Source: a virus (lineage: Duplodnaviria > Caudoviricetes). From it: a stretch of DNA of 42,082 nucleotides. The position numbers and the translations under genes are program-made. The stretch covers positions 1 to 42,082 of the IMG/VR virus record IMGVR_UViG_3300017766_002156; one strand, written 5' to 3'. This document shows, piece after piece, positions 4,004-18,231 of the stretch. The stretch's first letter is position 1. The number at the start of each line of letters is the position of its first letter. The notes under the pieces are model-generated. The model made no database searches and was not told the origin of the DNA. It saw nothing but the letters and a program-made list of their open reading frames with translations.

Positions 4004-4038
4004 GTTACGTGTTGCTACTGGTAACGGACCGTCAAGGA

Positions 4039-4115
4039 CCGAAATGAGGCGATTAACGCGTCGGGTGATTTTTCAATTCCAATGAAGTAACCCAGTGCTT
4101 ACAACCTCGTTTCGG
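4039..4115 (-). ncRNA. Y-RNA-like unit A; payload is a minimal anticodon-like stem-loop (UUCA-UUGGAAU-UGAA)
   Basis: 11-bp closing stem and shared scaffold GGUUGUAA..GGUUACUUC..AUCGCC; directly upstream of rsr. Confidence 0.75.
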
Positions 4116-4127
4116 GCTTCGACGCAC

Positions 4128-4227
4128 AGATGTGGCGGTAAACGATGACGGTTGATTGGTTACAGTAGCAACACTGTTGATTTGGAGCCATCACTGGCGA
4201 AGTACCCGTCTTCTTACACCCACATCT
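4128..4227 (-). ncRNA. Y-RNA-like unit B; payload of two hairpins, one antisense to phage 5' leaders
   Basis: AGAUGUGG/CCACAUCU stem, GGUACUUC motif, GCCA-GUGA-UGGC and ACAGUG-UUGC-UACUGU hairpins. Confidence 0.75.
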
Positions 4228-4239
4228 CTACGATGAAGC

Positions 4240-4400
4240 GATACAGAACATTGTTGTGGCGATAAGTTGGGAGGGAACGATTAGCGCTCTACCACTGAGC
4301 TACGAGGCCAAAGTGTGGCCTCGCTTGGAATCGAACCAAGTCCTCTCACTTAGAAGGTGAAGTAACCCTCCCGATGACAACCACAACAATGTTCTGTATC
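4240..4400 (-). ncRNA. YrlA-like Y RNA unit C with circularly permuted tRNA-like domain (UCU loop)
   Basis: Perfect 20-bp closing stem; order is anticodon-like arm, T arm (UUCGAUU), loop-closed acceptor stem CGAGGCC/GGCCUCG, D arm (UAGCUCAGUGGUAGAGC). Confidence 0.88.
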
Positions 4401-4402
4401 AA

Positions 4403-4590
4403 GCGCACATTCGTGGCGATAGCTGCGTGCAGTATGTATCAGTACAGTTTCCCGTACTCCCTACACGAGGGGAATCCGTAACACCGAAGTGTCCCAGGCG
4501 ACAGAGCCGAAGCTCTAAGATAATGGCCGTTAGGCAATTGTTTCCCTTTCGGGTGAAGTAACTGCGACACTGACAACCACGAATGTGTGC
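4403..4590 (-). ncRNA. Y-RNA-like unit D with a six-hairpin, non-tRNA payload
   Basis: 14-bp closing stem, same scaffold; GAAA, UAAC and UUCG tetraloop hairpins on the - strand. Confidence 0.78.
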
Positions 4591-4597
4591 TCGATAC

Positions 4598-4743
4598 GTT
4601 GAGGGCTAGGATGTGGCGATAGTATGCCACGGCGTTTTTGTCTTCGCAGGGATTGAACCTGCAACATTCTCCGTTTAAGGGGGATGCTCTACCGTTGAGC
4701 TAGAAGTAACCGTGACGATTACAACCACGTCTTAGCCCTCAAC
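4598..4743 (-). ncRNA. Y-RNA-like unit E with unpermuted tRNA-like domain (UAA loop)
   Basis: 19-bp closing stem; a 4-bp CUUC/GAAG acceptor-like stem encloses D, anticodon and T arms in normal order. Confidence 0.82.
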
Positions 4744-4753
4744 TTCTACAGGC

Positions 4754-4800
4754 ACTATAGCACTGGGACGTTCGGGCTGGAAGTCCCACCCTGTGGATAG
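4754..4800 (-). promoter_or_regulatory. Putative promoter for the Y RNA-rsr operon
   Basis: Extended -10 TGCTATAGT (4754-4762) just upstream of unit E; CTATCCACA box at 4792-4800. Confidence 0.65.
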
Positions 4801-4804
4801 TGGT

Positions 4805-4832
4805 GAACCCCCAACGGTAAGGCTGGGGGTTC
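4805..4832 (-). terminator. GC-rich hairpin downstream of the Cys-Thr-Pro tRNAs
   Basis: GAACCCCCAGC-CTTACC-GTTGGGGGTTC; no clear U tract. Confidence 0.45.
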
Positions 4833-4935
4833 TAGAGACGAGGCGTAAACTCCGTTTCAAGGATTGCTGAGTATTGCTCTGTCTCTAGCCCCATTTTACA
4901 CCCGTGCGATGGGTGCAAGTGCGTTGTTCACAACT

Positions 4936-5011
4936 TGGTCTGCGTAGAAGGAATCGAACCTTCGTCATTCTTCACCCCAAATGAAGTGCCATACCATTAG
5001 GCGATACACAG
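4936..5011 (-). tRNA. tRNA-Pro(UGG)
   Basis: Cloverleaf; loop TTTGGGG; CCA encoded. Confidence 0.92.
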
Positions 5012-5087
5012 TGGAGCCGATGAGGTTAATCGAAAACCTAGCCTTCTCGTTACAAAGGAGATGCTCTGCCACTTGAGCTACATCGAC
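5012..5087 (-). tRNA. tRNA-Thr(UGU)
   Basis: Cloverleaf; loop TTTGTAA; CCA encoded. Confidence 0.9.
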
Positions 5088-5102
5088 GTTTTGTTTTCCT
5101 GC

Positions 5103-5177
5103 TGGAAAGGTGGACGGGAGTCGAACCCGCGCTTAGCTCTTTTGCAGGGAGCCGTGTTACCTCTTCACCACCACCTT
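5103..5177 (-). tRNA. tRNA-Cys(GCA)
   Basis: Cloverleaf; loop CTGCAAA; U73-CCA. Confidence 0.9.
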
Positions 5178-5249
5178 ACGGGGTCGTTGAAAGAACACGG
5201 CTACACGATGTGGGGGATGTGAAGTATACTGGCTTCATGATTGGCACTA

Positions 5250-5307
5250 ACTATACATCCATGTCGTAGGGCACGCAACATTAGACGTGTCCACTACCTG
5301 TGGATAA
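5250..5307 (-). promoter_or_regulatory. Sigma70-like promoter with perfect DnaA-box sequence
   Basis: TTGCGT-17 nt-TATAGT; TTATCCACA at 5299-5307. Confidence 0.7.
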
Positions 5308-5457
5308 ATGAGTAAGAAGAAGAACGGTGGCAACCGTAAGCTCTCTCGCGCTGACAAGCGCAAGCGTTACTACGAGCGCCATCCTGAGAAGAAGAATCCA
5401 TCTACGAGCGTTGAAGGTCGCGCATGGCGCAACTTCAACCGCCGTAAGAAGGGGTAA
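5308..5457 (+). CDS. Small, very basic protein (49 aa), opposite in orientation to the tRNA array
   Basis: MSKKKNGGNRKLSRADKRKRYYERHPEKKNPSTSVEGRAWRNFNRRKKG; phage-typical AAG/CGC codons; followed by a hairpin. Confidence 0.75.
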   Translation: MSKKKNGGNRKLSRADKRKRYYERHPEKKNPSTSVEGRAWRNFNRRKKG

Positions 5458-5458
5458 C

Positions 5459-5493
5459 GCAAAGGGGAGTGACGAAATGTCACTCCCCTTTGC
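5459..5493. terminator. Perfect 15-bp hairpin, probable bidirectional terminator
   Basis: GCAAAGGGGAGTGAC-GAAAT-GTCACTCCCCTTTGC between convergent units. Confidence 0.8.
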
Positions 5494-5496
5494 TAT

Positions 5497-5570
5497 TGGT
5501 GAGCCTACTTGGAATCGAACCAAGGTGGACTGGTTAAGAGCCAGCTGCTCGGCCACTGAGCGATAGGCCC
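5497..5570 (-). tRNA. tRNA-Lys(CUU)
   Basis: Cloverleaf; loop CTCTTAA; CCA encoded. Confidence 0.92.
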
Positions 5571-5571
5571 G

Positions 5572-5641
5572 TCAGGTAAGAGCTTTCGAGGTCTCTCTGC
5601 CACATTCACAGCGTGGGGTGCTACATATACACCATTACCTG
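5572..5641 (-). tRNA. tRNA-His(GUG), degenerate T arm (possible pseudo-tRNA)
   Basis: CAGGTAA/TTACCTG acceptor, loop CTGTGAA; irregular T stem; no encoded G-1. Confidence 0.6.
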
Positions 5642-5643
5642 TG

Positions 5644-5715
5644 TGCGTCGTCGGGGAGTCGAACCCCGTCCTCCTGCTTGGAAGGCAGGCATGCAACCGA
5701 TTGCACTTACAACGC
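5644..5715 (-). tRNA. tRNA-Gly(UCC)
   Basis: Cloverleaf; loop CTTCCAA; A73. Confidence 0.88.
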
Positions 5716-5726
5716 ATATCGAACGG

Positions 5727-5797
5727 TGGCTTGTAGTGGTGACGCTCCACTCTATTCGGGGTTTCAATCCGACGCTCTGCTGATGAGCTAACAAGCC
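5727..5797 (-). tRNA. tRNA-Phe(GAA), atypical T loop
   Basis: Loop TTGAAAC; T loop AGCGTCA. Confidence 0.8.
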
Positions 5798-5798
5798 C

Positions 5799-5874
5799 TG
5801 GCTCGGACGGGAGGACTCGAACCTCCGACTCTCTGGGTAACAACCAGGCACTCTACCATCTGAGTTACATCCGA
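5799..5874 (-). tRNA. tRNA-Asn(GUU)
   Basis: Cloverleaf; loop TTGTTAC; GCCA end. Confidence 0.92.
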
Positions 5875-5887
5875 ATGTATCGCACGG

Positions 5888-5955
5888 CGGGACCAGTAGG
5901 ACTCGAACCTACCCAGACAGCGTTTGGAGTGCCGTCCCCGCCCTGCGGTGGACCC
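5888..5955 (-). tRNA. tRNA-Trp(CCA) with minimal D arm
   Basis: Loop CTCCAAA, canonical T arm; D arm reduced to CCGC-AGG-GCGG. Confidence 0.75.
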
Positions 5956-5965
5956 ATATTCGCAC

Positions 5966-6055
5966 TGGCTGGGAAAGTAGGCATCGAACCCACAAAGAGC
6001 TTTCGCTCACTCCTGGTTCAGAGCCAGGCGACTTTACCAATTTGTCCATTTCCCA
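5966..6055 (-). tRNA. tRNA-Gln(CUG) with long variable arm
   Basis: U1-A72, loop CTCTGAA, extra GAGC-GAAA-GCTC arm, GCCA end. Confidence 0.85.
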
Positions 6056-6075
6056 ATATCACTTTTATAGCACGG

Positions 6076-6147
6076 CGCTGCGTAGGGGGGTTGAACCCCT
6101 GACCTTCCCGCAGACAACGGGTTGCTCTGCCACTGAGCTAACGCAGC
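6076..6147 (-). tRNA. tRNA-Asp(GUC)
   Basis: Cloverleaf; loop TTGTCTG (pyrimidine at 37); G73. Confidence 0.85.
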
Positions 6148-6257
6148 TGGAGCCATGTACCGCAGGAGTTACACCTACTCACCAACTAGCAGCCTAGGTC
6201 TGGCTGTTGGTGCATACGCCTTCCAGGAGGTTTTACGGTCCCTACGGGCGATACGGC
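6148..6257 (-). ncRNA. Unclassified tRNA-like RNA ending in CCA
   Basis: Bulged acceptor-like stem, T-like arm GTAGG-TGTAACT-CCTGC, long CACCAAC/GTTGGTG arm; no canonical anticodon loop. Confidence 0.6.
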
Positions 6258-6260
6258 TTG

Positions 6261-6346
6261 CGGAAGCGGGGGGACTCGAACTCCCAAAGGCTTTGACACC
6301 CACGGCTGATTTCAAGTCAGCTGCCTTACCATTAGGCTACGCTTCC
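6261..6346 (-). tRNA. tRNA-Ser(UGA)
   Basis: Loop CTTGAAA, long variable arm, G73. Confidence 0.92.
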
Positions 6347-6364
6347 ATGCTGATTCACAGCTTG

Positions 6365-6438
6365 TACCTGCGAGAGGACTCGAACCTCCAGATTACTGTT
6401 CCTAAGACAGTTGCCTATACCAATTCGGCTACGCAGGC
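6365..6438 (-). tRNA. tRNA-Leu(UAG) with short variable loop
   Basis: Loop CTTAGGA; variable region only AATCT. Confidence 0.85.
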
Positions 6439-6441
6439 ATG

Positions 6442-6528
6442 TGACGTTGCATGGAATCGAACCATGCTATGAGGGGCGTGTCTACCCGTTTCCCTCCCTC
6501 GGAGCCTGTAGACAGACTCCGCAACGCC
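6442..6528 (-). ncRNA. Anticodon-less tRNA-like RNA with predicted pseudoknot
   Basis: GGCGTTG/CAACGTC acceptor, canonical T arm; loop TGTCTAC complementary to GTAGACA in the next arm. Confidence 0.7.
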
Positions 6529-6529
6529 C

Positions 6530-6604
6530 TGGTGGACCTTCGGGGAATCGAACCCCGCCCTCCTCGGTGCAAGCGAGGTGTGCTACCACTAGCACCAAAA
6601 GCCC
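6530..6604 (-). tRNA. tRNA-Ala(UGC)
   Basis: G3:U70; loop CTTGCAC; CCA encoded. Confidence 0.93.
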
Positions 6605-6605
6605 G

Positions 6606-6677
6606 TAACCCCTGTCAGTGCTGCCCTGACCGCCTCCTGAGTGTAAAACAGGCGCTCTGCTGATGAGCTAAGGGGCT
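6606..6677 (-). tRNA. tRNA-Val(UAC), atypical T loop
   Basis: Loop TTTACAC; T loop GGCAGCA. Confidence 0.8.
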
Positions 6678-6678
6678 G

Positions 6679-6751
6679 TGGCCCAGGCAGGAGTCGAACC
6701 TGCAACCTTCTGATTCGTAGTCAGACGCTCCTCCAATCGAGCTGCTGGGTC
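6679..6751 (-). tRNA. tRNA-Arg(ACG)
   Basis: Cloverleaf; loop CTACGAA. Confidence 0.9.
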
Positions 6752-6752
6752 G

Positions 6753-6826
6753 TGGCTGCGGTGGGACTCGAACCCACAATCTGCTCCTCTTGAGGGAGTC
6801 GGCTTTACCAATTAGCCTACGCAGCT
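6753..6826 (-). tRNA. tRNA-Leu(CAA) with short variable loop
   Basis: Loop CTCAAGA; variable region only AGATT. Confidence 0.85.
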
Positions 6827-6827
6827 G

Positions 6828-6910
6828 CGGAAGATGTTGGACTCGAACCAACAGGGCTTTTACACCCGACACGCTAGCAACGTGCTCCAATACCATTCTG
6901 GCAATCTTCC
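6828..6910 (-). tRNA. tRNA-Ser(GCU)
   Basis: Loop TTGCTAG, long variable arm, G73. Confidence 0.9.
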
Positions 6911-6919
6911 ATCGCACGG

Positions 6920-6997
6920 TGCGCCTGGGTGGAATCGAACCACCGTTGCCGAAGCGAGTGATTTACAGTCACCCTGTACTCCATGTACCTCAAACGC
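6920..6997 (-). tRNA. tRNA-Tyr(GUA)
   Basis: Loop CTGTAAA; variable arm GC-TTCG-GC. Confidence 0.88.
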
Positions 6998-7001
6998 CTT
7001 G

Positions 7002-7354
7002 TGGACCTGGGGGCATCGAAGCCCCGTCCGAACATCATTCACATCACGAGTCTACATAGCATAGGCATTTTTATAGTGAGCCATCACCTATTCCAGACAA
7101 GGAATTACGCAGCCCGTTGTTTGATACTCGTGGTATCAGGGCTAGGACCTCCACCAGTTTGTAGTGATGATGCCATTCGCGTTACCACAAACATCTCACG
7201 CGATGACACCTACGTTAGGCGAAGGCGAGAACGCCGAGTTCGCGTGCGTAGGGGGATGGAATGGCCTTTGCAGGTATCCTTTTGCGACCATCTATATGTC
7301 GCCTCAGTAGCTATGCACGTTCAATGTCCGATGCCGTCAAAACCTTGCAGGCCC
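7002..7354 (-). ncRNA. ssrA: tmRNA, predicted tag (A)AKAIPSPYARELGVLAFA*
   Basis: 5' GGGCCTGCAAGGTTTTGAC, 3' GACGGGGCTTCGATGCCCCCAGGTCCA with G3:U70; tag ORF 7271->7215. Confidence 0.92.
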
Positions 7355-7355
7355 G

Positions 7356-7426
7356 TAGGGATAGAAAGAATCGAACTTTCGTTCTTCGCGTATCAGGCGA
7401 GTCTTCTACCATTGAAGTATATCCCT
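7356..7426 (-). tRNA. tRNA-Ile(GAU)
   Basis: Cloverleaf; loop CTGATAC. Confidence 0.88.
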
Positions 7427-7427
7427 G

Positions 7428-7498
7428 TGACCCTAGAGAGAATCGAACTCTCGTTGTATGGCTGAGAACCATGCGTCCTTCCACTAGACGATAGGGCC
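7428..7498 (-). tRNA. tRNA-Glu(CUC)
   Basis: Cloverleaf; loop TTCTCAG. Confidence 0.88.
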
Positions 7499-7499
7499 G

Positions 7500-7571
7500 T
7501 GACCTCACGGAGACTCGAACTCCGTACTCCACCTTGAAAGGGTAGCGACTTAACCCATTGTCGATGAGGCC
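7500..7571 (-). tRNA. tRNA-Glu(UUC)
   Basis: Cloverleaf; loop CTTTCAA. Confidence 0.9.
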
Positions 7572-7609
7572 ATTGAAGGTTCCACGCTCAGGCCGTTACC
7601 TACAACCGC

Positions 7610-7683
7610 TGGTGCGAACATTGGGAATCGAACCCAACTTTCTTGCTTGGCAAGCAAGCGTACTGCCAATGTACGATGCTCGC
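7610..7683 (-). tRNA. tRNA-Gly(GCC)
   Basis: Cloverleaf; loop TTGCCAA; A73-CCA. Confidence 0.92.
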
Positions 7684-7684
7684 G

Positions 7685-7756
7685 TAGCGGGCTAGGGAAT
7701 CGGACCCTACCTTGATGGTTATGAGCCATCCGTGCACACCAGTACACTAGCCCGCT
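7685..7756 (-). tRNA. tRNA-Met(CAU); initiator or elongator unresolved
   Basis: Loop CTCATAA; AGCGGGC acceptor; only two of the three initiator G-C pairs. Confidence 0.85.
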
Positions 7757-7774
7757 TGGGGTATGTTACCCCAC

Positions 7775-8446
7775 TTACTTCGTGTTTTCGAGGTCCTGCT
7801 GGTCCTCCTTGGAGAAGAACGACTGAGTGTTCAAGCTAGCGCTCGCTGCGTACATCGTGGTGTTCGTTGCCATCTTGCTGAATGTGCCACGAGTACCGAT
7901 GTCGCTTGAGTTGTAGTTCGACACGTTCTGCGCCGAGAGACCGAACTGCTGAGCAACTGCGTATGAGTCCTGGTTCGCACCGAGGAACACGAACGTCCAG
8001 TTACCCTTCTTTTCGAGGCGTGCCATAGCCTCCTTGAGGTCCTTGTCGGTGAACTCCTTCGATGAGTTCTCCTGACCATCTGTCATGATGACGCACAGAA
8101 CCTTCTGACCCGTCTTCAGAGACTTCTCTGTCTCTTTGATGGTCTGCACCGCTGCGTCATAGAGAGCGGTTCCTCCACCAGGGCGGTAGTTCGTGGAGCT
8201 GAGTTCAGGTACATCCTTGATTTCCTCGTTCGCGTATACCTTCTCAACCGTCGTATCGAACAGAGTGAGAGACATCGCGTACTTGGACTTCTTATCTCCC
8301 CGTAGGGTATCGACGTACTCGTTGAACCCGCTGATTGTTGCTTGTGCAACCGAACTCATGCTCCCCGACTTATCGAGGATGAAGGTGACCAGGGTCTCCT
8401 TACTTGCCTTGCTTGGTGACTTTGGATTCGGGATGGTCTTTTTCAT
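7775..8446 (-). CDS. vWA-domain protein
   Basis: FILDKSGSM, GGTALYDA and IMTDGQEN MIDAS motifs. Confidence 0.92.
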   Translation of the reverse strand: MKKTIPNPKSPSKASKETLVTFILDKSGSMSSVAQATISGFNEYVDTLRGDKKSKYAMSLTLFDTTVEKVYANEEIKDVPELSSTNYRPGGGTALYDAAVQTIKETEKSLKTGQKVLCVIMTDGQENSSKEFTDKDLKEAMARLEKKGNWTFVFLGANQDSYAVAQQFGLSAQNVSNYNSSDIGTRGTFSKMATNTTMYAASASLNTQSFFSKEDQQDLENTK

Positions 8447-8582
8447 ACAGTTCGGCCTTACGAACTACATCAGCTAGAACATCAGCGATGTTGTTACCTC
8501 CAATACGCTTTGCCTTGCGGATTGCCAGCTTCTCAGCCGTAGTGGGGTGTACCCGCGCTCGCTTGTTAGTTTCTTTGCTCAT
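8400..8582 (-). CDS. Small basic hypothetical protein
   Basis: 60-aa ORF downstream of a promoter; overlaps the vWA gene start. Confidence 0.55.
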   Translation of the reverse strand: MSKETNKRARVHPTTAEKLAIRKAKRIGGNNIADVLADVVRKAELYEKDHPESKVTKQGK

Positions 8583-8598
8583 GTGCCTATAATTTTCA

Positions 8599-8640
8599 AC
8601 TATAACACGTCCCTACTATCCCTTGGTGGCGTTATCCCCA
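8599..8640 (-). promoter_or_regulatory. Putative promoter for the vWA-tRNA-tmRNA operon
   Basis: Extended -10 TGTTATAGT (8599-8607); TTATCCCCA on the + strand at 8632-8640. Confidence 0.65.
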
Positions 8641-8641
8641 G

Positions 8642-8791
8642 CTACTGCACGTTCTTCTCGGTGCAGATGCACGGCGACCAGTAGTAGCTCGGTTCGCCAT
8701 CTCCCCCCAGTGTCATCTCCTCGTGACGGCCTTCGCCTTCACACTCTTCGCAGTCGGGGTCAGCGAATTGCTTATAGCGGTTGATGTCCAT
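8642..8791 (-). CDS. 49-aa Cys-rich protein (CxxCxGxG..CxC)
   Basis: Manual ORF MDINRYKQFADPDCEECEGEG..PCICTEKNVQ. Confidence 0.75.
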   Translation of the reverse strand: MDINRYKQFADPDCEECEGEGRHEEMTLGGDGEPSYYWSPCICTEKNVQ

Positions 8792-8792
8792 G

Positions 8793-9080
8793 TTAGAAGC
8801 GGTCTACCTTGCGTTCACCGTACCCTAGAGCAGCACGCCATTCGTCAACGTTCATCTTGCGTTTGATGGCCACCTCTTCATCCGTGGGGAGGAAGTAACC
8901 CGCCTGATTGAACGAGCGACGGCAGCGCTCTATGGCCGATGCGTTACGAACAGGGTCCTTGCCTGGGAACAGCTCACACACCTTGTGAATTAGCTGCTCA
9001 TCGCTATTGCGGGTGGCAGGGAAGTTCTCAAGGACGTGTTGCACCTGGTCTTTCAGCTTGAGGATGTGTTCGTACTTCAT
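8793..9080 (-). CDS. Hypothetical protein (95 aa, MKYEHILK..)
   Basis: Start moved to the ATGA overlap with the upstream gene. Confidence 0.75.
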   Translation of the reverse strand: MKYEHILKLKDQVQHVLENFPATRNSDEQLIHKVCELFPGKDPVRNASAIERCRRSFNQAGYFLPTDEEVAIKRKMNVDEWRAALGYGERKVDRF

Positions 9081-9376
9081 GGCTTCTTGATACGGCTTAG
9101 GACGCACGCTGGTACTTTGCACTCTTCTTCCAGCTTCGATACGTTCACGCGCTTTGCACGTCGGTGGAAGTCTACGATGCCTGACTGATACCCCTTCAAG
9201 TCTTCGACCTGTTTCACCGAGCACGTGTGCTTCGGAGTAGGTGATACCTGGGGAGCCGTGGCTTGCTGTGCGTACATCATCTCACGGTACAGCCTCGCTG
9301 AACTCTTCCCGTAACGTCCGTAAACGTCCCATGGATTCATTAGCGTGTTGTAGTCGTATCCTGAGTACATAGCCAT
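9077..9376 (-). CDS. Hypothetical protein
   Basis: 99-aa ORF in a tightly packed operon. Confidence 0.7.
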   Translation of the reverse strand: MAMYSGYDYNTLMNPWDVYGRYGKSSARLYREMMYAQQATAPQVSPTPKHTCSVKQVEDLKGYQSGIVDFHRRAKRVNVSKLEEECKVPACVLSRIKKP

Positions 9377-9377
9377 A

Positions 9378-9659
9378 TTAGGTCTTCGCTTCTTCCACTG
9401 CCTTCGTGAAGGAACGTACTCCTGCGTAGAACGGCTTCATACGCTTCGGCGTTCCTTCAAGAGGGTCTGGTGGCGCTGGTGGCTGCACGAGCTGGATTTC
9501 CCACTCATCGTGATTACTGCGACTCCCCTGGTCCCAAGAGACCGTGTAGGGCGCACAGTCACACTGCACCGTTCCAGTCCACTGACGATAGCTTTCCCCC
9601 CAGCGCTGCTTTACGCCTGCTTCTGACAGTTGTACGCGCTGACCTGGGTAGAAGGCCAT
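9378..9659 (-). CDS. Hypothetical protein, possible SH3/KOW-like fold
   Basis: FYPGQRVQL..GTV..YTVSWD pattern. Confidence 0.65.
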   Translation of the reverse strand: MAFYPGQRVQLSEAGVKQRWGESYRQWTGTVQCDCAPYTVSWDQGSRSNHDEWEIQLVQPPAPPDPLEGTPKRMKPFYAGVRSFTKAVEEAKT

Positions 9660-9660
9660 A

Positions 9661-10224
9661 TTACTGAGGCTTCTTCTCTTCCTTCTTCTGCTCGCCTCCC
9701 TTAGCCTGGTTGACGGTTACGTCGGCGTTGAAGCTGAAGTTGAGCTTGTCGAGTTCCACCTTAGGAATGAGACCAGCGATGAACTTCACGAACTCATCGA
9801 GGCGAGTGATGTCTGCCTTGAGGTGGTCGATAGCTATATCCTTGCCCGCTGAATCCGCTTCTGCGATTGCAGTGCGCTTCTCAAGCTCAGGGATGCTGTC
9901 GAGCTTCTTCACGAGGTCCTTCTTGGACTCAATCTCAGCATCGAGCTTTGCAAGCTCTACATCCTTCTCGGACTTCGAGGTGAGGAAAGTGGTCTCAAGC
10001 TCTGCGGTCTTCTTGAGGGCTGCACGCTCTCCATCGAGACCCTTCTCACGAGCAGATAGCTTCGCGTCGCGTGCTTCTGCTTCGGCGTTCTGGCGCTCGT
10101 AGCGAACCTCGCTCTGAACCTCCTGCTGCTTCTCACGGCGGTAGAGTTCTACCTCGCGGTCAATAATCTTCTTCTCGCGCTCAAGGTCCTTGACCTCTTC
10201 ATCTGACACGAAGAACTTTCCCAT
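9661..10224 (-). CDS. Coiled-coil protein
   Basis: 187 aa, E/K/A-rich; downstream of the SPFH gene. Confidence 0.8.
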   Translation of the reverse strand: MGKFFVSDEEVKDLEREKKIIDREVELYRREKQQEVQSEVRYERQNAEAEARDAKLSAREKGLDGERAALKKTAELETTFLTSKSEKDVELAKLDAEIESKKDLVKKLDSIPELEKRTAIAEADSAGKDIAIDHLKADITRLDEFVKFIAGLIPKVELDKLNFSFNADVTVNQAKGGEQKKEEKKPQ

Positions 10225-10257
10225 AGTAGTGATTGGTGATTAAAGAACGATTGGTAA

Positions 10258-11058: not shown

Positions 11059-11167
11059 TTTTCTTTTTCTTAGACTTCTTGCTGGTAAGGAGCTTGATGT
11101 ACACGGCTGCTGCGACCCCGATGAGGATGAGGATAATCAGCAGCTCGATGAGGCGCAGTGCTGCCAT
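11039..11167 (-). CDS. 42-aa membrane peptide with pilin-like hydrophobic helix
   Basis: Manual ORF MAALRLIELLIILILIGVAAAVYIKLLTSKKSKKKKNDSNGS. Confidence 0.75.
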   Translation of the reverse strand: MAALRLIELLIILILIGVAAAVYIKLLTSKKSKKKKNDSNGS

Positions 11168-11170
11168 ACA

Positions 11171-11455
11171 CTAGCCTTCCTGGACTGGTAGTGGACGTAG
11201 GTCCGTGGGCGCGAGCGGGTGCATCTTGGAGCGGTGGATACCGATACCAATGAGACCCTTGAACTCCTTCCCACACACCTCGCATGACTTCTTGAAGGCA
11301 TGCTTCTTGCGCTTCTTCTCTGCAACCACAGTGGGCTGCACAGTAGGGCGTTCGGTGACGAAGAAGTCAGAGAGGAAGAGTTCAACGAACTTCTTCTGCT
11401 CCTTCTCTCCTTCGGCTACGAGGTGAAGTTCACCTCCTTGATGAATCATTTTCAT
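11171..11455 (-). CDS. C2H2 zinc-finger protein
   Basis: CEVCGKEFKGLIGIGIHRSKMH; TAGCAACAC leader motif. Confidence 0.8.
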   Translation of the reverse strand: MKMIHQGGELHLVAEGEKEQKKFVELFLSDFFVTERPTVQPTVVAEKKRKKHAFKKSCEVCGKEFKGLIGIGIHRSKMHPLAPTDLRPLPVQEG

Positions 11456-11531
11456 CTTAGTGTTGCTAGCTGTTAATAATGCAGCGAAAGATTCAGGGTG
11501 AACCAGTCGCTATGCGTGGGGTAGTCATAGG

Positions 11532-12134
11532 CTAGAAGGAAAGTTCTGTTACAACTTCACGAACACGGGCGAGCACGTCACGTTCCATCTCAAGGAACTC
11601 ATCAACCTTCTCCTGGTCGCGCTCAATCTCGATGACGAAGTAGTCCTTCACAGTGAGGTTCGGGTCGTAGAAAATCATCGACACCTTCTGGAGGTCATCG
11701 TTCACCACGAAATACTGGTTCACCTGGTCGCAGTATTCGTCGGGAATCTTCTGGGTGAGGAACGTTTCGATGTGCGTCTCGTCAGCGAGGCACTTCACCT
11801 CCACGGCATGCTCACGGTCAATCACGCCATCGGGTGACACGGCGATGCTGTCGTCTTCGTCGCGGGACCAGATGTAGAGACCCTGGTCGACCTCCTGACC
11901 CGTCTCGGTCATGAATCGCTGGATAGCCTCAACCTCAAGGCGCTGACCACGGTCCATCGGCTTCTCGCCTTCCTCACGAGGCTTGGCTAGGCGCTCAGCG
12001 ATAAGGGTGTAGAAGCCCTTCTTGAGACCTGTGCCACGGAGCTTCGGCTTGATGTCGGTGACCTTGGAGCCAGTAATCTTCCCGCGTCGGGCAGCAAGCC
12101 ACTCCTCGCGGTCCTCGTACTTACTTACCTTCAT
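11532..12134 (-). CDS. YqaJ/lambda-exonuclease family protein
   Basis: EWLAARRGKITGS, RGQRLE, SPDG, VEVKC, QVNQY motifs. Confidence 0.93.
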   Translation of the reverse strand: MKVSKYEDREEWLAARRGKITGSKVTDIKPKLRGTGLKKGFYTLIAERLAKPREEGEKPMDRGQRLEVEAIQRFMTETGQEVDQGLYIWSRDEDDSIAVSPDGVIDREHAVEVKCLADETHIETFLTQKIPDEYCDQVNQYFVVNDDLQKVSMIFYDPNLTVKDYFVIEIERDQEKVDEFLEMERDVLARVREVVTELSF

Positions 12135-12804
12135 ATTCTTTTGCTACGGCTTCTACGGGGTCCTCACCCTTCATCACGGCGACGCGACGAATCTCAGACT
12201 TCGACTTCGTGGGCGGTGTGGTTGCAGGTGGCTCTTCCTTCTTCTCTTCAACAGGAGGTGTGAGCTTCACCTTCTGAGCGTTCTTGAACTCAAGCACGTC
12301 AGGCTTCACCTCAGCAGGAATCTCGGTCCACACAGCTGCGAGTTCCTTGAGGTCTTTCGCATCACCGAGACGCTCGGTCCAGGCGAGGATGGATGCCTCC
12401 TTCTGTTCCTGCTTGTACTCCTCGAACTCTTCCATCTCTTCGCTCGATGCAATCTCACCTGAAGCGAGGTAGCCGACGTTGGCGAGTGCGCGTCCAAGTG
12501 CGATGGTCTCCAACTTCTCGAAGTCCTTCACCTTCTTTCCTGCTTCACCCTTCGCGTTTCCGTTTCCATCGGCGCTGGCACGTAGCGCAGCTTTGTCGAT
12601 GATGCCTGACTTGATGAGTTCGAGCAGGTCGCTCTTGTCCTTCCAGAGCCACACCGTGAACACGACACTTCCATCTGCGTGAGTATCGTATGCTGACTCG
12701 TGCTTACCTTTTGGGTTCGCTTCGAGGAACTCCTTGAGACGGTCCTTCACTTGCGCGTACTGCTTGCCAGAGAGGTCCATCGTCTTTGCAAACTTTTGAG
12801 TCAT
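12121..12804 (-). CDS. Probable single-strand annealing protein (Rad52/Sak-like)
   Basis: YAQVKDRL..EKLETIALGRALANVG; coupled to the exonuclease gene. Confidence 0.7.
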   Translation of the reverse strand: MTQKFAKTMDLSGKQYAQVKDRLKEFLEANPKGKHESAYDTHADGSVVFTVWLWKDKSDLLELIKSGIIDKAALRASADGNGNAKGEAGKKVKDFEKLETIALGRALANVGYLASGEIASSEEMEEFEEYKQEQKEASILAWTERLGDAKDLKELAAVWTEIPAEVKPDVLEFKNAQKVKLTPPVEEKKEEPPATTPPTKSKSEIRRVAVMKGEDPVEAVAKEYEGK

Positions 12805-12833
12805 GGTTGTGTTGCTAGTTTTTAATACAGGAA

Positions 12834-13059
12834 CCTATGTGCTGAGCACGAGACCGAAAGGTTAGTGTGCATCCGTAGATGACTGACCACGATTGCTTCC
12901 ATTTTCGCGCCCAACACACAGGTGGGGAATATAGCTGGCGGGCATCTCAGTTTTCATGTAGCTCTCGAAGACCTGTAACCAGTCGTCTTCGACAACTCAT
13001 GAACCCAAGGTGTCGCTGCCTATTCCGTGAGAGAGAGTGTTTCATCGCTCTTCACCTGT
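12834..13059 (-). ncRNA. Highly structured 5' leader or ncRNA with two long stem domains
   Basis: Long irregular hairpin 12918-13059 and a G:U-rich stem 12834-12922 holding a C-UACG-G tetraloop. Confidence 0.65.
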
Positions 13060-13065
13060 ACAGGT

Positions 13066-13145
13066 ACTATAGGGACAAGTGGGACGTTTTGCAATCGGCA
13101 AGGTGGGGATAACCTTCGGGACTATCGGGACGTGCGTGCTATATT
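13066..13145. promoter_or_regulatory. Divergent promoters around a TTATCCCCA box
   Basis: Leftward TTGCAA-17 nt-TATAGT (13094->13066); box 13104-13112; rightward TGCTATATT 13137-13145. Confidence 0.7.
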
Positions 13146-13153
13146 CATTCTCA

Positions 13154-13861
13154 ATGGCCAACCGACGTATGTTCAGTCTCCATATCGTAGATACCGACGC
13201 ATTTCTGGACATGCCTCAAAGCTCCCAGCTGCTGTACTTCCACCTATCCATGCGTGCGGATGACGATGGTTTCGTGGCTAACCCGAAGAAGGTGATGCGT
13301 ATGGCGGGTGTGAACGACGACGACATGAAGGTGCTCGTAGCGAAGCGGTTCATCCTCATCTTCGACTCAGGTGTGGTCGTCATCAAGCACTGGAAGATTC
13401 ACAACTACATCCAGAATGACCGCTACCGTGAGACCAAATACCTTGAGGAGAAGAGTTCAATCGTGGTCAAGGAGAATGGTTCGTATACAGAGCGGATACA
13501 TTCTGTATCCAAACTGGAGCCACAAGTTAAGATAAGTAAGGTTAAGATAAGTAAAGATAAGAATACATCGTCTATCGACGATGACGGGTTCGACTCATTC
13601 TGGAAGGCATATCCTCTGAAGAAGGGTAAGCAGGCAGCAGTGAAGGCATGGAAGAAGCTGAACCCCGACCCAGCGTTCGCTCAGAAAATCATCGACGCAG
13701 TGCTTTTGCACGCACGTGACGATGAGCAGTGGACAAAGGATGATGGGCGCTTCATTCCCCACGCCTCGACGTTCCTGAACGGACAGCGTTGGGAAGATGA
13801 AATCAAGCCCCGCGCTACTGCACGCATTGACCGCTTTACCAAGGAAGATAAACCATTCTAG
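13154..13861 (+). CDS. Replication initiator / replisome organizer
   Basis: MANRRMFS..LYFHLSMRADDDGFV N-terminus; FDSFWKAYP..KQAA..IPHASTFLNGQRWEDE C-terminus. Confidence 0.9.
   Translation: MANRRMFSLHIVDTDAFLDMPQSSQLLYFHLSMRADDDGFVANPKKVMRMAGVNDDDMKVLVAKRFILIFDSGVVVIKHWKIHNYIQNDRYRETKYLEEKSSIVVKENGSYTERIHSVSKLEPQVKISKVKISKDKNTSSIDDDGFDSFWKAYPLKKGKQAAVKAWKKLNPDPAFAQKIIDAVLLHARDDEQWTKDDGRFIPHASTFLNGQRWEDEIKPRATARIDRFTKEDKPF
13526..13563 (+). repeat. AT-rich direct repeats in the initiator gene, candidate origin iterons
   Basis: GTTAAGATAAGTAA twice plus partial AGATAAGAA, in the linker-coding region. Confidence 0.5.
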
Positions 13862-13863
13862 CT

Positions 13864-14394
13864 ATGGCAACTATCAAAATCCGTGGGCGCTTAGAACCAA
13901 TCATCGTTGATGACGCAATCGCCAAGAAGGTGAAGGCACGTAAGTTCGGTGATGGCGTTGCACAGGCGCAACCGAACGAGCTGGTTGACCTTGGTGAGTG
14001 GTCAGGCGAGTACGGGCGCATCGTTGAGATTGAGTTCCAGCGCAAGGAGAATGACGAAGCGCGTCGTGCTGAGGCACAGCGCAAACTCGAAGAAGAGAAG
14101 CGCAAGGAAGAAGAGTGGCTCAAGAAGCCCGCAGAGGAAAAGGCGAAGAGCGAGACCATGTTCGAGACCGCCTACGCGATGCGTATGTTCGGCAAGTTCC
14201 GCTGCGAGTTGCCTCCTGATGTATCGAAGCGTGCATACGAAGTACGTTTGCAGTGGTTCAAGGACCATCCTGCTGATTGGTCTGTTCCATCATCAGCCTA
14301 CCCAGAAGACCTGCTGCCCCCGAAGGGTAAGTCAGGCCGTGCAATCCTCGCTGACAAGATGCGCGTAAAACCTGAGGACCCCCTCGCTTTCTGA
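13864..14394 (+). CDS. Hypothetical protein
   Basis: 176-aa ORF coupled to the initiator. Confidence 0.8.
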   Translation: MATIKIRGRLEPIIVDDAIAKKVKARKFGDGVAQAQPNELVDLGEWSGEYGRIVEIEFQRKENDEARRAEAQRKLEEEKRKEEEWLKKPAEEKAKSETMFETAYAMRMFGKFRCELPPDVSKRAYEVRLQWFKDHPADWSVPSSAYPEDLLPPKGKSGRAILADKMRVKPEDPLAF

Positions 14395-14395
14395 T

Positions 14396-15031
14396 ATGGC
14401 CCGAACCAAGAACATCAACGCTCTCGAAGCGGACATAGAGAAGCAGGCAAAGGAGCTGATGGTCCAGTTCTACGGCTTTACCGAGGGTACGCGCTACCTG
14501 TCGCTGCTGCACCGCAGCAAGGATGGTGGTGACCAGAACTCTGAGTACAAGCGCCGTGCTGCTCACTTCGTGACGCATAGTGCCAACGAGTACGAGAACG
14601 CATTGGTACGTCTCCTCATCCTGAAGGCCATATCGAGCACCCCGTATCGCCTCTACGCCAGCGCCAATGCACGTGACATCAAGAAGGCCGAGCGTGCCTT
14701 CAAGCGCGACATGCTGGAGGTTGATTTTGAGGCAGGCGAGAACAAGGAGTATTTCTGGAAGCGCCTTGAGTCTAAGTGGATTAGCGCTCTCATGCAGCCA
14801 GGTTCACGTGCTGGCAGTGGTTTCATGATTGACGTGGACCGTGTTGAGGGTGGCCCTACTGACATCACTGCACCCGTACTCACATGGCTCGCAGCGAACA
14901 AGATTGAGCCACTGAAGCAGTACACGACACCGAATGGCTGGCACATCCTCACCCCGCCATTCAACCCGACTGGCTGGGATATACCGAACGCTGAGATTAA
15001 GAAAGACGGTCTAATCCTGCTCGCAGCATGA
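14396..15031 (+). CDS. Putative AEP/PrimPol-like protein
   Basis: hhDVD motif (FMIDVD) and TPNGWHIL motif. Confidence 0.55.
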   Translation: MARTKNINALEADIEKQAKELMVQFYGFTEGTRYLSLLHRSKDGGDQNSEYKRRAAHFVTHSANEYENALVRLLILKAISSTPYRLYASANARDIKKAERAFKRDMLEVDFEAGENKEYFWKRLESKWISALMQPGSRAGSGFMIDVDRVEGGPTDITAPVLTWLAANKIEPLKQYTTPNGWHILTPPFNPTGWDIPNAEIKKDGLILLAA

Positions 15032-15147
15032 TTTGGCTTCGTAACTTCTGGCGTGCCATGTGCGGACTCTCTGAGTGCTGCGGAGCGGACATCTGGTCGT
15101 GGTCGGACCGAAAACATTACTGCACTAAATGTGACAAGCTCGTATGA
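15028..15147 (+). CDS. 39-aa zinc-ribbon protein
   Basis: Manual ORF with SECCGA..YCTKC; ATGA overlaps at both ends. Confidence 0.75.
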   Translation: MIWLRNFWRAMCGLSECCGADIWSWSDRKHYCTKCDKLV

Positions 15148-15839
15148 AAATCATCGCTGTAGGAGACATACACGGGCGCGAGACCTGGAAGCAGGTGCTC
15201 GAAAAGGAGAAGGACTTCGACAAGTTCGTCTTCGTCGGTGACTACTTCGATGCGTTCCCTCCGATGACCGTTGACCGCATCATGCAGACCTTCCAGGAAA
15301 TCCTTGAGTTCAAGGAGCAGAACGAGGACCGCGTGCATCTCTTGATGGGGAACCATGACTTCCAGTACACGCCGTTGTCTGGAGGAACTGAGCGCTACTC
15401 AGGGTACAACCCGATTACGCAGTCACACCTCGACGCGATGATTGGATGGTGGTCCGTGCTTGAGCCAGCCTTCCAGTACGAAGACGTTCTCTTCTCCCAC
15501 GCAGGTCTCACCAATACGTTCGCTGCTCACTGGGGCATGCCTAAGTTCGCAGCTGCCAATGCTGCCTACGAGATTACGAAACTCTTCGACGAGCACCCTG
15601 AGGCGTTCAAGTTCTTCGATGGGGACACGTCGCGTTGCGGTGAGCACGTGAAGCAGAGTCCGTTCTGGGTGCGCCCCGACACACTAGAGACCGACATGTA
15701 CCCTGGCCTACGCATGGTGGTTGGCCATACGCACGCTGAAGGTGTGGAGCAGCGCGGACCTCTGTTCATGATTGACACAGGCAAGCAGGGCGAGTATCTC
15801 CGTATCGAAGACGGGAACATCTTCACTGGAACACTATGA
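15144..15839 (+). CDS. Calcineurin-like metallophosphoesterase
   Basis: GDIHG, GDYFD, GNHD, SHAG and GHT motifs. Confidence 0.93.
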   Translation: MKIIAVGDIHGRETWKQVLEKEKDFDKFVFVGDYFDAFPPMTVDRIMQTFQEILEFKEQNEDRVHLLMGNHDFQYTPLSGGTERYSGYNPITQSHLDAMIGWWSVLEPAFQYEDVLFSHAGLTNTFAAHWGMPKFAAANAAYEITKLFDEHPEAFKFFDGDTSRCGEHVKQSPFWVRPDTLETDMYPGLRMVVGHTHAEGVEQRGPLFMIDTGKQGEYLRIEDGNIFTGTL

Positions 15840-16210
15840 GTAACTTCTACGAAAGCAGCATGTCTCCAGAGGAACTGATTTGTAACGGCTGCGAGTCGGT
15901 CTACCCAAACAATCGAAACGAACGTGATGAACGCCTCCAGATTACTATGGGCTGGATGATATTCGTCATGTGTCCTGTATGCACGAAGAAGGTGCTTGAG
16001 TCAGCGGGACTTACTGACCAGGTTCTTAAACGCAAAATGAACAGCATCCGTCGTGCTGAGACCGAGAACAATCGGAAGCGTGAAGTGAAGGAGGGCGTGC
16101 GCTGCTACAAGTGCGAAGAAAAGTTTGCACGCGATGTGCCACGTGTGAAGGTTGATGAGTGCTCTAATACCAAGGCTTACCACCTCAACTGCTATGAAAC
16201 TATTCGTTGA
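15836..16210 (+). CDS. Cys-rich hypothetical protein
   Basis: Several CxxC motifs. Confidence 0.75.
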   Translation: MSNFYESSMSPEELICNGCESVYPNNRNERDERLQITMGWMIFVMCPVCTKKVLESAGLTDQVLKRKMNSIRRAETENNRKREVKEGVRCYKCEEKFARDVPRVKVDECSNTKAYHLNCYETIR

Positions 16211-16577
16211 TGACATCCGCACTCCACCCGATGACTCCTGGACGCTAGTCAGGACTGTCACTGAAGCGATACGTGCCATCGCTCGCTTCGACTTCGAGGA
16301 AATTAGTCTGGACCACGACATATCGCATGAAGTATCCATCGGAAATCACGTATCACGCCCGTTCCCGTGCGGAGAGACGTATGCTGCTGTCGCCTACTAC
16401 ATCGCACTGAAGTACCAGGGCTACTCAGCGACTCACCCAAAGATTACGCTGCACACCAGTAACGAGGTGGCAGGTGACGAGATGGCAAATATGTTTGATG
16501 ACCACGGCATCATCGTCGAGAAGAAGTACATGGGGGGAGCTAAGCGCCTCAAGGATGGAGGCTGGAAACCTGTATGA
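16194..16577 (+). CDS. Cyclic-phosphate-processing receiver-like domain protein
   Basis: MKLFVDDIR..W..VRT..EAI..ISLDHD..LHTSN..G pattern. Confidence 0.8.
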   Translation: MKLFVDDIRTPPDDSWTLVRTVTEAIRAIARFDFEEISLDHDISHEVSIGNHVSRPFPCGETYAAVAYYIALKYQGYSATHPKITLHTSNEVAGDEMANMFDDHGIIVEKKYMGGAKRLKDGGWKPV

Positions 16578-17071
16578 CACGCGCCTTCGTAAAAGACGGG
16601 GAGATAGAGTTCGGTTCGCCACTGGCTAAGCACCGCTTCTTGAAGCTGGCTGAAGGCCACGAGGTGAAGCTAGACATCCTGGTGAAGCCCACGAGCGAGA
16701 TGCGTAAGTATTTCGAGGGATGCCTCGTGCCTGCCTTCTACTACATGCACCCCCACTCCAAGTGGAAGACCTTTGCCGATGCACGGGAGGTACTCAAGCT
16801 AGAGTTCAGCCCTGGAGTGCGAGAATTGACCGACAGAGAGGGTAACCAGGTCAAAGTGGCCCCAAGTACCACTGAGCTGTCCAAGCGTCGCTTCACGGTC
16901 TTTGTAGAGGCAATCACGGACTGGATGCGGGAGAACGGCGTGCCAGAGGACGTGCTGGACTCAGAGGAGTACAAGCGCTGGCGCGATACCAACTTCGAGG
17001 ACCCGTACTACCCACCACTTCAGCGCCTCAAGGACCTCTACGACCAGGCCCGAAAAGTGAAGAACCCCTAG
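16574..17071 (+). CDS. Hypothetical protein, possibly NinB-like
   Basis: PSTTELSKRRFTVFVEAI segment; last gene of the operon. Confidence 0.65.
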   Translation: MTRAFVKDGEIEFGSPLAKHRFLKLAEGHEVKLDILVKPTSEMRKYFEGCLVPAFYYMHPHSKWKTFADAREVLKLEFSPGVRELTDREGNQVKVAPSTTELSKRRFTVFVEAITDWMRENGVPEDVLDSEEYKRWRDTNFEDPYYPPLQRLKDLYDQARKVKNP

Positions 17072-17090
17072 CTTTCGCCAGAGGTTCTTC
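17059..17090. terminator. Hairpin between convergent operons
   Basis: GAAGAACC..GGTTCTTC inverted repeat. Confidence 0.5.
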
Positions 17091-17195
17091 ATTCTGCCGA
17101 GGACCAGCCTTATTCAGGGGGTCCCCAGGTCCAGGCTTGTTTACGATGCCTAAGAACGCTTGAGCCACTCCAGGTGACGTTACGCGCAGTATGGA

Positions 17196-17360
17196 TTATT
17201 GGCCGTGAACAGTTTGTGAAGGCCCAAACACACACTTCTTGCCTTCCCAGGTGACCATTCCTGCCCCTGCGTCACACCCACTGGCGAGCCAGAGATTGAA
17301 GCCGAGAGCGATGGCTACCATCGTTGAGAAGAACACGATGCGGAAGATTGCCTCTTTCAT
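17196..17360 (-). CDS. 54-aa membrane or secreted peptide
   Basis: Manual ORF MKEAIFRIVFFSTMVAIALGFNLWLASGC..; ATGA overlap. Confidence 0.7.
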   Translation of the reverse strand: MKEAIFRIVFFSTMVAIALGFNLWLASGCDAGAGMVTWEGKKCVFGPSQTVHGQ

Positions 17361-17569
17361 ACGAGTAGCATCTTAGGGATAGATACCCCAACGTAGCGCT
17401 CTGGCTGCTCTGTCATCAGCTTCTTTTGGGTCGCTACCCACTCTTCGTGAGGCTGATTGAAAGCGATGCCAACGGGGTTGCAGGCGTTACAGCCCACGTT
17501 TTTCTTACAATCGTTTATGTGGTACTGGACGCACGTTCCGCATGAACACCCACTCTTGGTACGACTCAT
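17357..17569 (-). CDS. Cys-rich hypothetical protein (70 aa)
   Basis: Start moved to the ATGA overlap; CSCGTC and CNAC motifs. Confidence 0.7.
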   Translation of the reverse strand: MSRTKSGCSCGTCVQYHINDCKKNVGCNACNPVGIAFNQPHEEWVATQKKLMTEQPERYVGVSIPKMLLV

Positions 17570-17751
17570 ACCGTTCCAAGGATAACGCTCTCCACCCAAA
17601 TCTCTCCCTCACCTGCCCCTGGCTTCACGAGCCAGCGCTGCTTTGCGTAGGACACCTTCACGTCAAGGACTTCAACGATAATCTTGAGACCACCGAGGTC
17701 GATGATGCCCTTCTTGCCAATATCGCCCATCATTTCTTTTACAGTTGCCAT
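17566..17751 (-). CDS. Hypothetical protein
   Basis: 61-aa ORF in the operon. Confidence 0.75.
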   Translation of the reverse strand: MATVKEMMGDIGKKGIIDLGGLKIIVEVLDVKVSYAKQRWLVKPGAGEGEIWVESVILGTV

Positions 17752-17757
17752 AGGTAG

Positions 17758-17961
17758 TTAAATTATTCCTCCCGCTTTTCTAATCTCTTTCAGTGCGTTG
17801 GTCATCGAGTATCGGTCACTTGGTGTGAGCGAGACCGTGAAGCAACGTTTACTTCTGTTTGCTGGATAGAGGACCAGATGCTTGCTCCCCATCCTCCACC
17901 TCCATCCCTGTCGTTCAAGCCCTGGTAGTAACCGCGTCACGAACTTGTGAACGTCAGCCAT
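17758..17961 (-). CDS. HicA-like (dsRBD-fold) protein
   Basis: LERQGW..GSKHLVL..TPSD pattern, 67 aa. Confidence 0.7.
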   Translation of the reverse strand: MADVHKFVTRLLPGLERQGWRWRMGSKHLVLYPANRSKRCFTVSLTPSDRYSMTNALKEIRKAGGII

Positions 17962-17963
17962 GG

Positions 17964-18191
17964 CTAGTTCTTTGCGTCTAACGCTATCGCCTCTTCAGAG
18001 TAGCCCTGCATCCTCAAAATATCCGCACGCTTAGGGGCTTTGATGACCTTTGCTGAGGTCTCAGAAGGGTAGGCATATGCCAGGTCCTTCTGAATCATCA
18101 TGTGCGCCCTTTCATCAGTCATATCGAAACCGTCTTCAACCCACGTCTCGCTCACCTCGAACTCGACTACCCACTTGAATGTCTTGCTCAT
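17964..18191 (-). CDS. Hypothetical protein, first gene of a leftward operon
   Basis: 75-aa ORF with TAGCAACAC leader hairpin. Confidence 0.8.
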   Translation of the reverse strand: MSKTFKWVVEFEVSETWVEDGFDMTDERAHMMIQKDLAYAYPSETSAKVIKAPKRADILRMQGYSEEAIALDAKN

Positions 18192-18231
18192 GTTACGTGT
18201 TGCTACTTGTAACCCCTTTCGGGATACTTAT

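Follow-up and report, generated by a model that had tools for sequence, protein, structure and literature searches.

The precursors that yield bacterial Y RNAs lie upstream of rsr, the gene for the Ro60 homolog Rsr, and in Deinococcus radiodurans one of these RNAs, Yrn2, needs Rsr for stable accumulation; a position within 4 kb of rsr and on the same strand is one criterion for a bacterial Y RNA (PMC4201824). The functions described for bacterial and phage Y RNAs are those of a protein tether and a gate. Here we analyse a phage genome, IMG/VR record IMGVR_UViG_3300017766_002156, a complete record of 42,082 bp with direct terminal repeats, which we call the window, always meaning the whole stretch. 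Upstream of its rsr, on the same strand (-) and within 4 kb, stand five tandem Y-like RNA units (4743-4030), and the loop of the fourth, unit B, is complementary to the start regions of rsr and three further phage genes. As far as sequence comparison goes, the co-variation of such a Y-like RNA loop with the rsr start region and, in one lineage, with further genes is a real and well-supported feature.

The core of the complementarity, TAGCAACAC, occurs exactly five times in the window, compared with a mean of 0.37 in 100 dinucleotide shuffles (maximum 3, never 5). Four copies are in sense orientation ahead of leftward ATGs, at 5 nt from the starts of rsr and of the gene starting at 18191, and at 4 nt from those at 11455 and 12804. 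The remaining copy has the opposite orientation and sits within the large loop of unit B. The guide, its carrier and the four sites are as follows.

4116..4239, - strand: Y-like unit 4 ("B"), 124 nt, carrier of the guide, with a terminal stem; fold z -4.8
4158..4175, - strand: guide segment AGUGUUGCUACUGUAACC within the large loop of unit B, in a predicted 6-bp hairpin with a UUGC loop
4004..4025, - strand: leader of rsr; the guide pairs with 4009-4025 (12 bp + bulge + 4 bp), within a weak GUUAC/GUAAC hairpin that directly adjoins the AUG
11459..11473, - strand: target site ahead of a 94-aa C2H2-like gene (11171-11455), 10 bp + bulge + 4 bp
12809..12817, - strand: target site ahead of a 227-aa gene (12121-12804), itself before a YqaJ exonuclease gene, 9 bp
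18197..18214, - strand: target site ahead of a 75-aa gene (17964-18191), the first in a leftward operon, 11 bp + bulge + 6 bp

The guide duplexes thus comprise 16 pairs with rsr, 17 with 18191, 14 with 11455 and 9 with 12804. A first-pass annotation, made from the letters alone, had reported the five copies with these coordinates and strands, the 4-5 nt spacing at all four leaders and duplexes of these sizes, and an exact scan and recount agree with it throughout. Its GUUAC/GUAAC hairpin in the rsr and 18191 leaders held up in part: the fold is predicted at both, but it is weak, no better than shuffles at rsr (z -0.27; z -1.9 at 18191), and it is absent at the other two sites. The rsr and 18191 leaders also share a long identical run reaching the ATG. 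Regarding the gene labels, a visible Cys/His pattern and an ESM Atlas lead speak for the C2H2 label of the 11455 gene, but nothing further does, and the names "annealing protein" (12804) and "HicA-like" (18191) found no confirmation, as neither product matches a named family in PHROGs, Pfam or NCBIfam.

Leaders were ranked by the energy of the duplex plus the cost of opening both RNAs, because RNAcofold does not model pairing between loops when one of them is enclosed by a stem. By this accessibility-corrected energy the four target leaders take ranks 1-4 of 122 for the unit B loop, at -12.6, -10.4, -6.2 and -5.9 kcal/mol, with the next leader at -5.8 kcal/mol. When a 12-nt core is defined on rsr, a match of at least 9 nt is found in 4/152 ATG leaders of the window, rsr being one of them, versus 0.047 expected.

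A second phage genome, G004 (locus L014), is syntenic with the window at 38 open reading frames (ORFs). Its guide lies in the second-to-last unit and reads UGCUAACUGGA, one base longer than UGCUACUG in the window, and the matching extra base is present at all three start-proximal targets, which amounts to a compensatory one-base indel. One of these targets precedes rsr, another the C2H2-like ortholog (39% identity), and the third the gene that opens a leftward operon in the slot of 18191, where the ORF of G004 is not homologous to 18191. They rank 1-3 of 147 by accessibility-corrected energy; at least 9 nt of the rsr-defined core match in 3/176 ATG leaders, again including rsr, versus 0.034 expected. 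Queries with the C2H2 and Band_7 proteins gave no close relative except G004. A promoter element was considered for the motif at 18191 and G004 30967 and rejected, as the likely -35/-10 words lie, by eye, about 35-40 nt further upstream.

Four sequencing runs from a single study contain contigs of a relative from soil, which has 23 differences from the window over about 300 bases. None of the changes falls into 4122-4230 (109 nt, unit B), compared with 19 in 4028-4121, and the rsr site has a single change, at the bulged base 4021.

Among the relatives, units were called by stem and motif, and L086, which is the window itself, was dropped. In a first set of 20 loci with strong upstream units, window included, the locus' own loop and own rsr leader match over at least 9 nt in 7/20 cases, versus 8/380 for swapped pairs (0/100,000 permutations). 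A second set of the same size, again with the window, excluded L060 and L076, whose Rsr is distant, and took in L203 and L284. Here own pairs match over at least 9 nt (range 9-16) in 8/20 and swapped pairs in 11/380; at 10 nt or more the counts are 7/20 and 3/380, and the permutation test gives 0/50,000, whether the window is counted or left out. In this set no excess appears when the reverse or the complement is used as a control. A looser, motif-only set, comprising 39 of 226 distinct rsr loci, yields 6/39 own versus 61/1,482 swapped matches (7/20,000 permutations without the window). The excess is limited to positions -22..+3 of the rsr start, and six intervals inside rsr give 0-3/39. In an energy version, 8/20 own pairs reach -6 kcal/mol versus 32/380 swapped. 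Several own pairs had been inspected by eye before the tests were run. Among L015, L017 and L098, leader substitutions are matched by guide substitutions. The strong excess is antisense, lies at the start region and occurs in at least five different sequences. The co-variation of guide and leader in related phages, proposed in the first-pass annotation as a check, was thus found, both in the 8/20 own versus 11/380 swapped matches and in the G004 indel.

The earlier idea of a regulon of several genes fared less evenly. It applies to the window and G004, but the other relatives with a guide have no clear target besides rsr, and for the guide of L284 rsr is the sole match in 102 kb. A pattern scan of viral contigs for the guide plus the Y 3' motif gave 120 loci, none of them with a TROVE gene or Y-like unit. 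Two scans with Y-unit patterns gave 20 loci, 8 of which were already known; 2 of the 12 new ones are rsr arrays (L481 and L486), and neither has a 9-nt match between loop and leader.

Several relatives show pairings of other kinds. In L284, one rsr leader is matched in overlapping stretches by two different Y units that lie 440 and 540 nt upstream (11 bp, and 12 bp with one G.U). The last Y unit of L013 is a candidate second guide, since its loop forms 11 bp with the leader of a gene for a 283-aa protein with no assigned family (G003, 5792-6643). In L292, the record of L075, the 5' stem strand of the first unit, 170 nt upstream of rsr, and not its loop, is complementary to the rsr leader over 14 bp with one G.U, which suggests an alternative fold enclosing the array.

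The other units of the window array, and the likely promoter ahead of them, are the following.

4754..4762, - strand: likely promoter of an array and rsr transcript, extended -10-like TGcTATAGT, from a reading of the sequence
4598..4743, - strand: Y-like unit 1, in which ARAGORN calls a tRNA-Leu(taa) from stems resembling D-, anticodon and T-arms; a proper acceptor stem is missing
4396..4597, - strand: Y-like unit 2, long loop, 21-nt inverted arms that are 90% complementary
4240..4400, - strand: Y-like unit 3, YrlA-like, with a putative permuted tRNA-like domain (T-arm, then D-arm; RF02553)
4030..4124, - strand: Y-like unit 5 ("A"), short hairpin type, ending 26 nt from the rsr ATG; fold z -3.05

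All five units have a terminal stem of 19-21 bp, a GGUUGU-like 5' word and UACUUC. At the position equivalent to the Ro motif the 5' word is GGUUGUAA in 16/47 units and GGGUGUAA in unit B. RF02553 scores 30.5-32 bits on unit 3 (E 1.6e-4 to 3e-3), below the gathering score of 69, and unit B has no permuted tRNA-like domain. Because the GNCGAA/CGAA motif is absent from it, unit B is classed, on its letters, as Y-like, neither a proven Y RNA nor a YrlA. In unit 1 the tRNA-like arms stand in normal tRNA order, with the anticodon UAA, and an acceptor stem is not formed. At several junctions adjacent units share 6-9 nt. In 16/48 units an A.C mismatch stands at pair five of the terminal stem; outside this position G.U outnumbers A.C by 70 to 25, in stems called by a unit finder that itself favours G.U.

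With only 26 nt between the end of the last unit and the rsr ATG, rsr is probably co-transcribed with the array from the extended -10-like element. G004 has the same element behind a TTGACC -35; a consensus promoter scan of the window did not list 4754-4762. A word resembling a DnaA box, TTATCCACA or CTATCCACA, precedes the first Y unit by 52-74 nt, both in the window (4792-4800) and in five relatives (L012, L014, L017, L021 and L284), and a similar word stands ahead of the likely 18191 and G004 30967 promoters.

The gene at the end of the array is

2456..4003, - strand: rsr, Ro60 homolog of 515 aa with TROVE and vWA domains; phrog_850 at E 3e-47, PF05731 above cut-off

and its label in the first-pass annotation is confirmed by these domains and the phrog_850 match. 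TROVE (PF05731) reaches 89 bits against a cut-off of 23, and VWA_2 stays under its cut-off at E 8e-5. The Ro60 of Thermus phage phiLo (PDB 9L5Y/9KOP) matches the window Rsr over its full length (E 1e-18). With its residue numbering matched by spacing, three of the four basic residues by which phiLo Ro60 contacts RNA align to basic residues in the window Rsr (K133, R134 and K170), and the fourth aligns to P129, adjoining K130; the columns are invariant across 19 clade Rsr sequences. The window Rsr looks mosaic, with an N-terminal half like that of the L012-L030 clade and a vWA half that has inserts found in the A1 set, not in that clade.

Besides the Ro60 homolog, the phage encodes head genes, a recombination module, 22 tRNA calls, a transfer-messenger RNA (tmRNA) and groES. 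An array at 4936-7756 holds 21 further tRNA calls and the tmRNA in this 42-kb phage; Glu is called twice there, and Val, His and Trp are not called. A Shine-Dalgarno-like (SD-like) word is present in 3/49 hand-picked window leaders, and in a second count in 3/46 leaders versus 6 in the coding control. The host is probably a member of the Patescibacteria, because the second-best annotated match of the major capsid protein is a TM7 phage (28%, E 4e-28) and one clade Rsr is encoded on a short contig of a Saccharibacteria bin. Only 2/401 genomes of that phylum had a match, and they therefore provide no test set of host genomes. No RNA run is listed among the sequencing runs for the stretch, which sequencing run X6 covers in pieces only.

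That the pairing is functional in some way seems to us very likely. What it does is best accounted for, with fair probability, by an Rsr-stabilised unit B acting as an antisense guide that blocks initiation, autoregulates rsr and has been extended to early genes. A single promoter near 4760 would give a precursor with the five units and rsr, and binding of Rsr to the terminal stems would protect the units. The UUGC loop of the guide would nucleate on the GCAA of a leader and extend to 9-17 bp, and a duplex ending 4-5 nt from the AUG could occlude initiation in a host that does not use Shine-Dalgarno pairing. More Rsr would mean a more stable guide and less rsr translation, a negative feedback, and as the ribonucleoprotein (RNP) builds up the early genes would be turned down. 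The single-target rsr loop looks ancestral, and the lineage of the window and G004 would have added two or three early-gene leaders. As the direction of regulation we infer repression, because the duplexes end -1 to 3 nt from the AUG in seven single-target relatives and so would not leave the start free. The first-pass annotation had proposed a guide of this kind with autoregulation of rsr, leaving repression, decay and possible activation side by side; complementarity, position, orientation, co-variation and conservation speak for it, but the direction is our inference and the unit is only Y-like.

A number of observations weigh against such a guide. The 18191 duplex barely beats the next, unrelated leader (-5.9 versus -5.8 kcal/mol), the guide is partly shut in its own hairpin, at 7.7 kcal/mol to open, and the canonical Ro-binding motif GNCGAAN0-1G (CGAA) is absent from the 5' strand of unit B. 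In the second locus set, a direct-repeat control has a weak excess (2/20; 1,493/50,000 permutations), with none at 10 nt. By the energy test, a stable duplex is missing from 7/20 array loci, and in no more than 8/20 is the locus' own leader the top-ranked one. The loci are related, so that the eight hits represent about five independent sequence types (window/L014; L006; L012/L013 with L015/L017/L098; L016; L284), and G.U and A.C are equally frequent in the duplexes, at counts as small as 5 versus 5. Beyond rsr, leader matches show no general enrichment, with 32/924 own versus 283/13,860 swapped in a count on crude ORF calls, which missed one G004 target; 21 of the 32 remain after removal of 7 rsr rows and 4 self-overlap artefacts (ORFs overlapping the unit). 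Extra targets are seen in two phages only, the window and G004, and G004 has no site at the slot of 12804. Finally, genome G010 (locus L021) has TAGCAACAC 4 nt ahead of an ATG, but in its homologous unit no more than 7 bases are complementary, and a hairpin locks them up. This copy coincides with the final codons of the gene upstream and could be there by chance, which makes it an ambiguous counter-example. That unit, at -244, is a homolog of unit B that keeps the CUCCAAAUCAA flank and the UUGCUA seed, the latter closed in a 9-bp hairpin, and the rsr leader of L021 no longer matches it; it is possibly a switched-off guide.

In a rival reading the guide works in cis only, folding back on the rsr leader in the precursor and keeping rsr off until processing or Rsr binding, with the distant sites as copied pieces or relics. 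Guide and rsr site are 142 nt apart on one predicted transcript, most relatives have no clear target besides rsr, the leaders of rsr and 18191 are identical over a long run up to the ATG, and L292 pairs with its rsr leader through a 5' stem strand and not a loop. We nevertheless regard this as unlikely, since the distant G004 sites co-vary with the guide, both at an orthologous gene and at a syntenic slot with a replaced ORF, and every window target extends the duplex differently.

The position of the sites bears on two further explanations, to each of which we give a small chance. Rsr and another unit could tether a nuclease, PNPase-like as in the RYPER complex, to the paired mRNAs. An exonuclease acting 3'-5', however, starts from a 3' end and not from a site next to the AUG, and the strict start-codon position points to initiation instead. 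Pairing could also activate, either by opening the leader hairpin or by an RNP that brings ribosomes to leaders without SD words. The lack of such words in the phage fits, as do the gaps of 4-8 nt in the two multi-target phages, which resemble SD spacing, and, at rsr and 18191, a duplex that occupies the hairpin loop and 5' arm, freeing the AUG-side arm. These hairpins, however, are weak and missing from 2/4 sites, and the duplexes of single-target relatives leave a gap of just -1 to 3 nt before the AUG. Very improbable is a protein site, with the inverted copy as another operator or chance; it could be an operator in the DNA, bound for instance by the C2H2 protein, or a hairpin in the RNA bound by a translational repressor. 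Operators too show co-variation inside one genome, the seven sites of the window and G004 all retain TAGCAAY, which exceeds the pairing of the G004 guide by one or two bases, and G010 has a copy without a full guide, but the start-proximal copies are all sense at a fixed ATG distance with the Y-loop copy always antisense, relatives repeat this arrangement with unrelated sequences, and the sole change in the site of the soil relative is a bulged base.

Returning to the antisense guide that blocks initiation, the locus can be set beside the described Ro60 systems. Like Rsr with YrlA/YrlB in Salmonella and Mycobacterium smegmatis, or with Yrn1/Yrn2 in the D. radiodurans RYPER, the window has several stem-closed RNAs that directly precede rsr and share its strand; at least one of them seems to have a tRNA-like domain, and others are plain hairpins. 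The roles described for those RNAs are a PNPase tether and a gate of the Ro cavity, with no mRNA pairing described in the accessible parts of the sources (PMC4201824, 10.1101/312249). The window units differ in a 5' motif that is GGUUGUAA-like, not GNCGAA, and in a loop complementary to start regions. The Ro60 of Thermus phage phiLo with Yrl1/Yrl2 is likewise phage-encoded and is the closest solved structure (PMC12135203, in part; 9KOP, 9L5Y); unlike the window, phiLo has two RNAs with the CGAA motif, and the words mRNA, translation and antisense are absent from the main text of that paper. Within the literature searched, which extended to the accessible portions of 10.1101/312249, PMC7824862 and 10.1101/2024.10.10.617714 and had subscription reviews and supplements outside its scope, there was no mRNA-pairing Y RNA.

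If the proposed guide is real, base-pairing control of translation would be a function of Y loops, with Ro60 in an Hfq-like role, and the position of rsr behind arrays of different Y RNAs would be explained. An autoregulatory loop would have been recruited into a circuit of phage gene timing, by a translational control suited to hosts that do without Shine-Dalgarno pairing. More tentatively, and we would sooner doubt than expect it, Ro60 might be the protein core of a reprogrammable RNA-guided system, in which the Y stem is the handle, the loop an exchangeable guide and the array a multi-guide cassette, with Rsr promoting the capture and silencing of phage, perhaps also host, mRNAs. With a swappable guide this would be a compact RNA-guided silencer.

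The nearest functional parallels then lie outside the Ro60 systems. As in trans-acting small RNAs, short complementarity to initiation regions is found at other loci and co-varies with the targets. The antisense small RNAs of Hfq and ProQ share the short, bulged pairing over the initiation regions of several mRNAs and an RNA stabilised by a protein, here as proposed; they differ in that the scaffold in the window is a Y-like tandem array, the presumed chaperone is Ro60 and the apparently ancestral target is the chaperone's own mRNA. Long-form tracrRNA and CreA repress cas or toxin promoters, so that a protein-bound guide RNA represses the gene of that very protein. These RNAs act on DNA promoters via Cas proteins, whereas the position of the motif in the window points to mRNA and translation.

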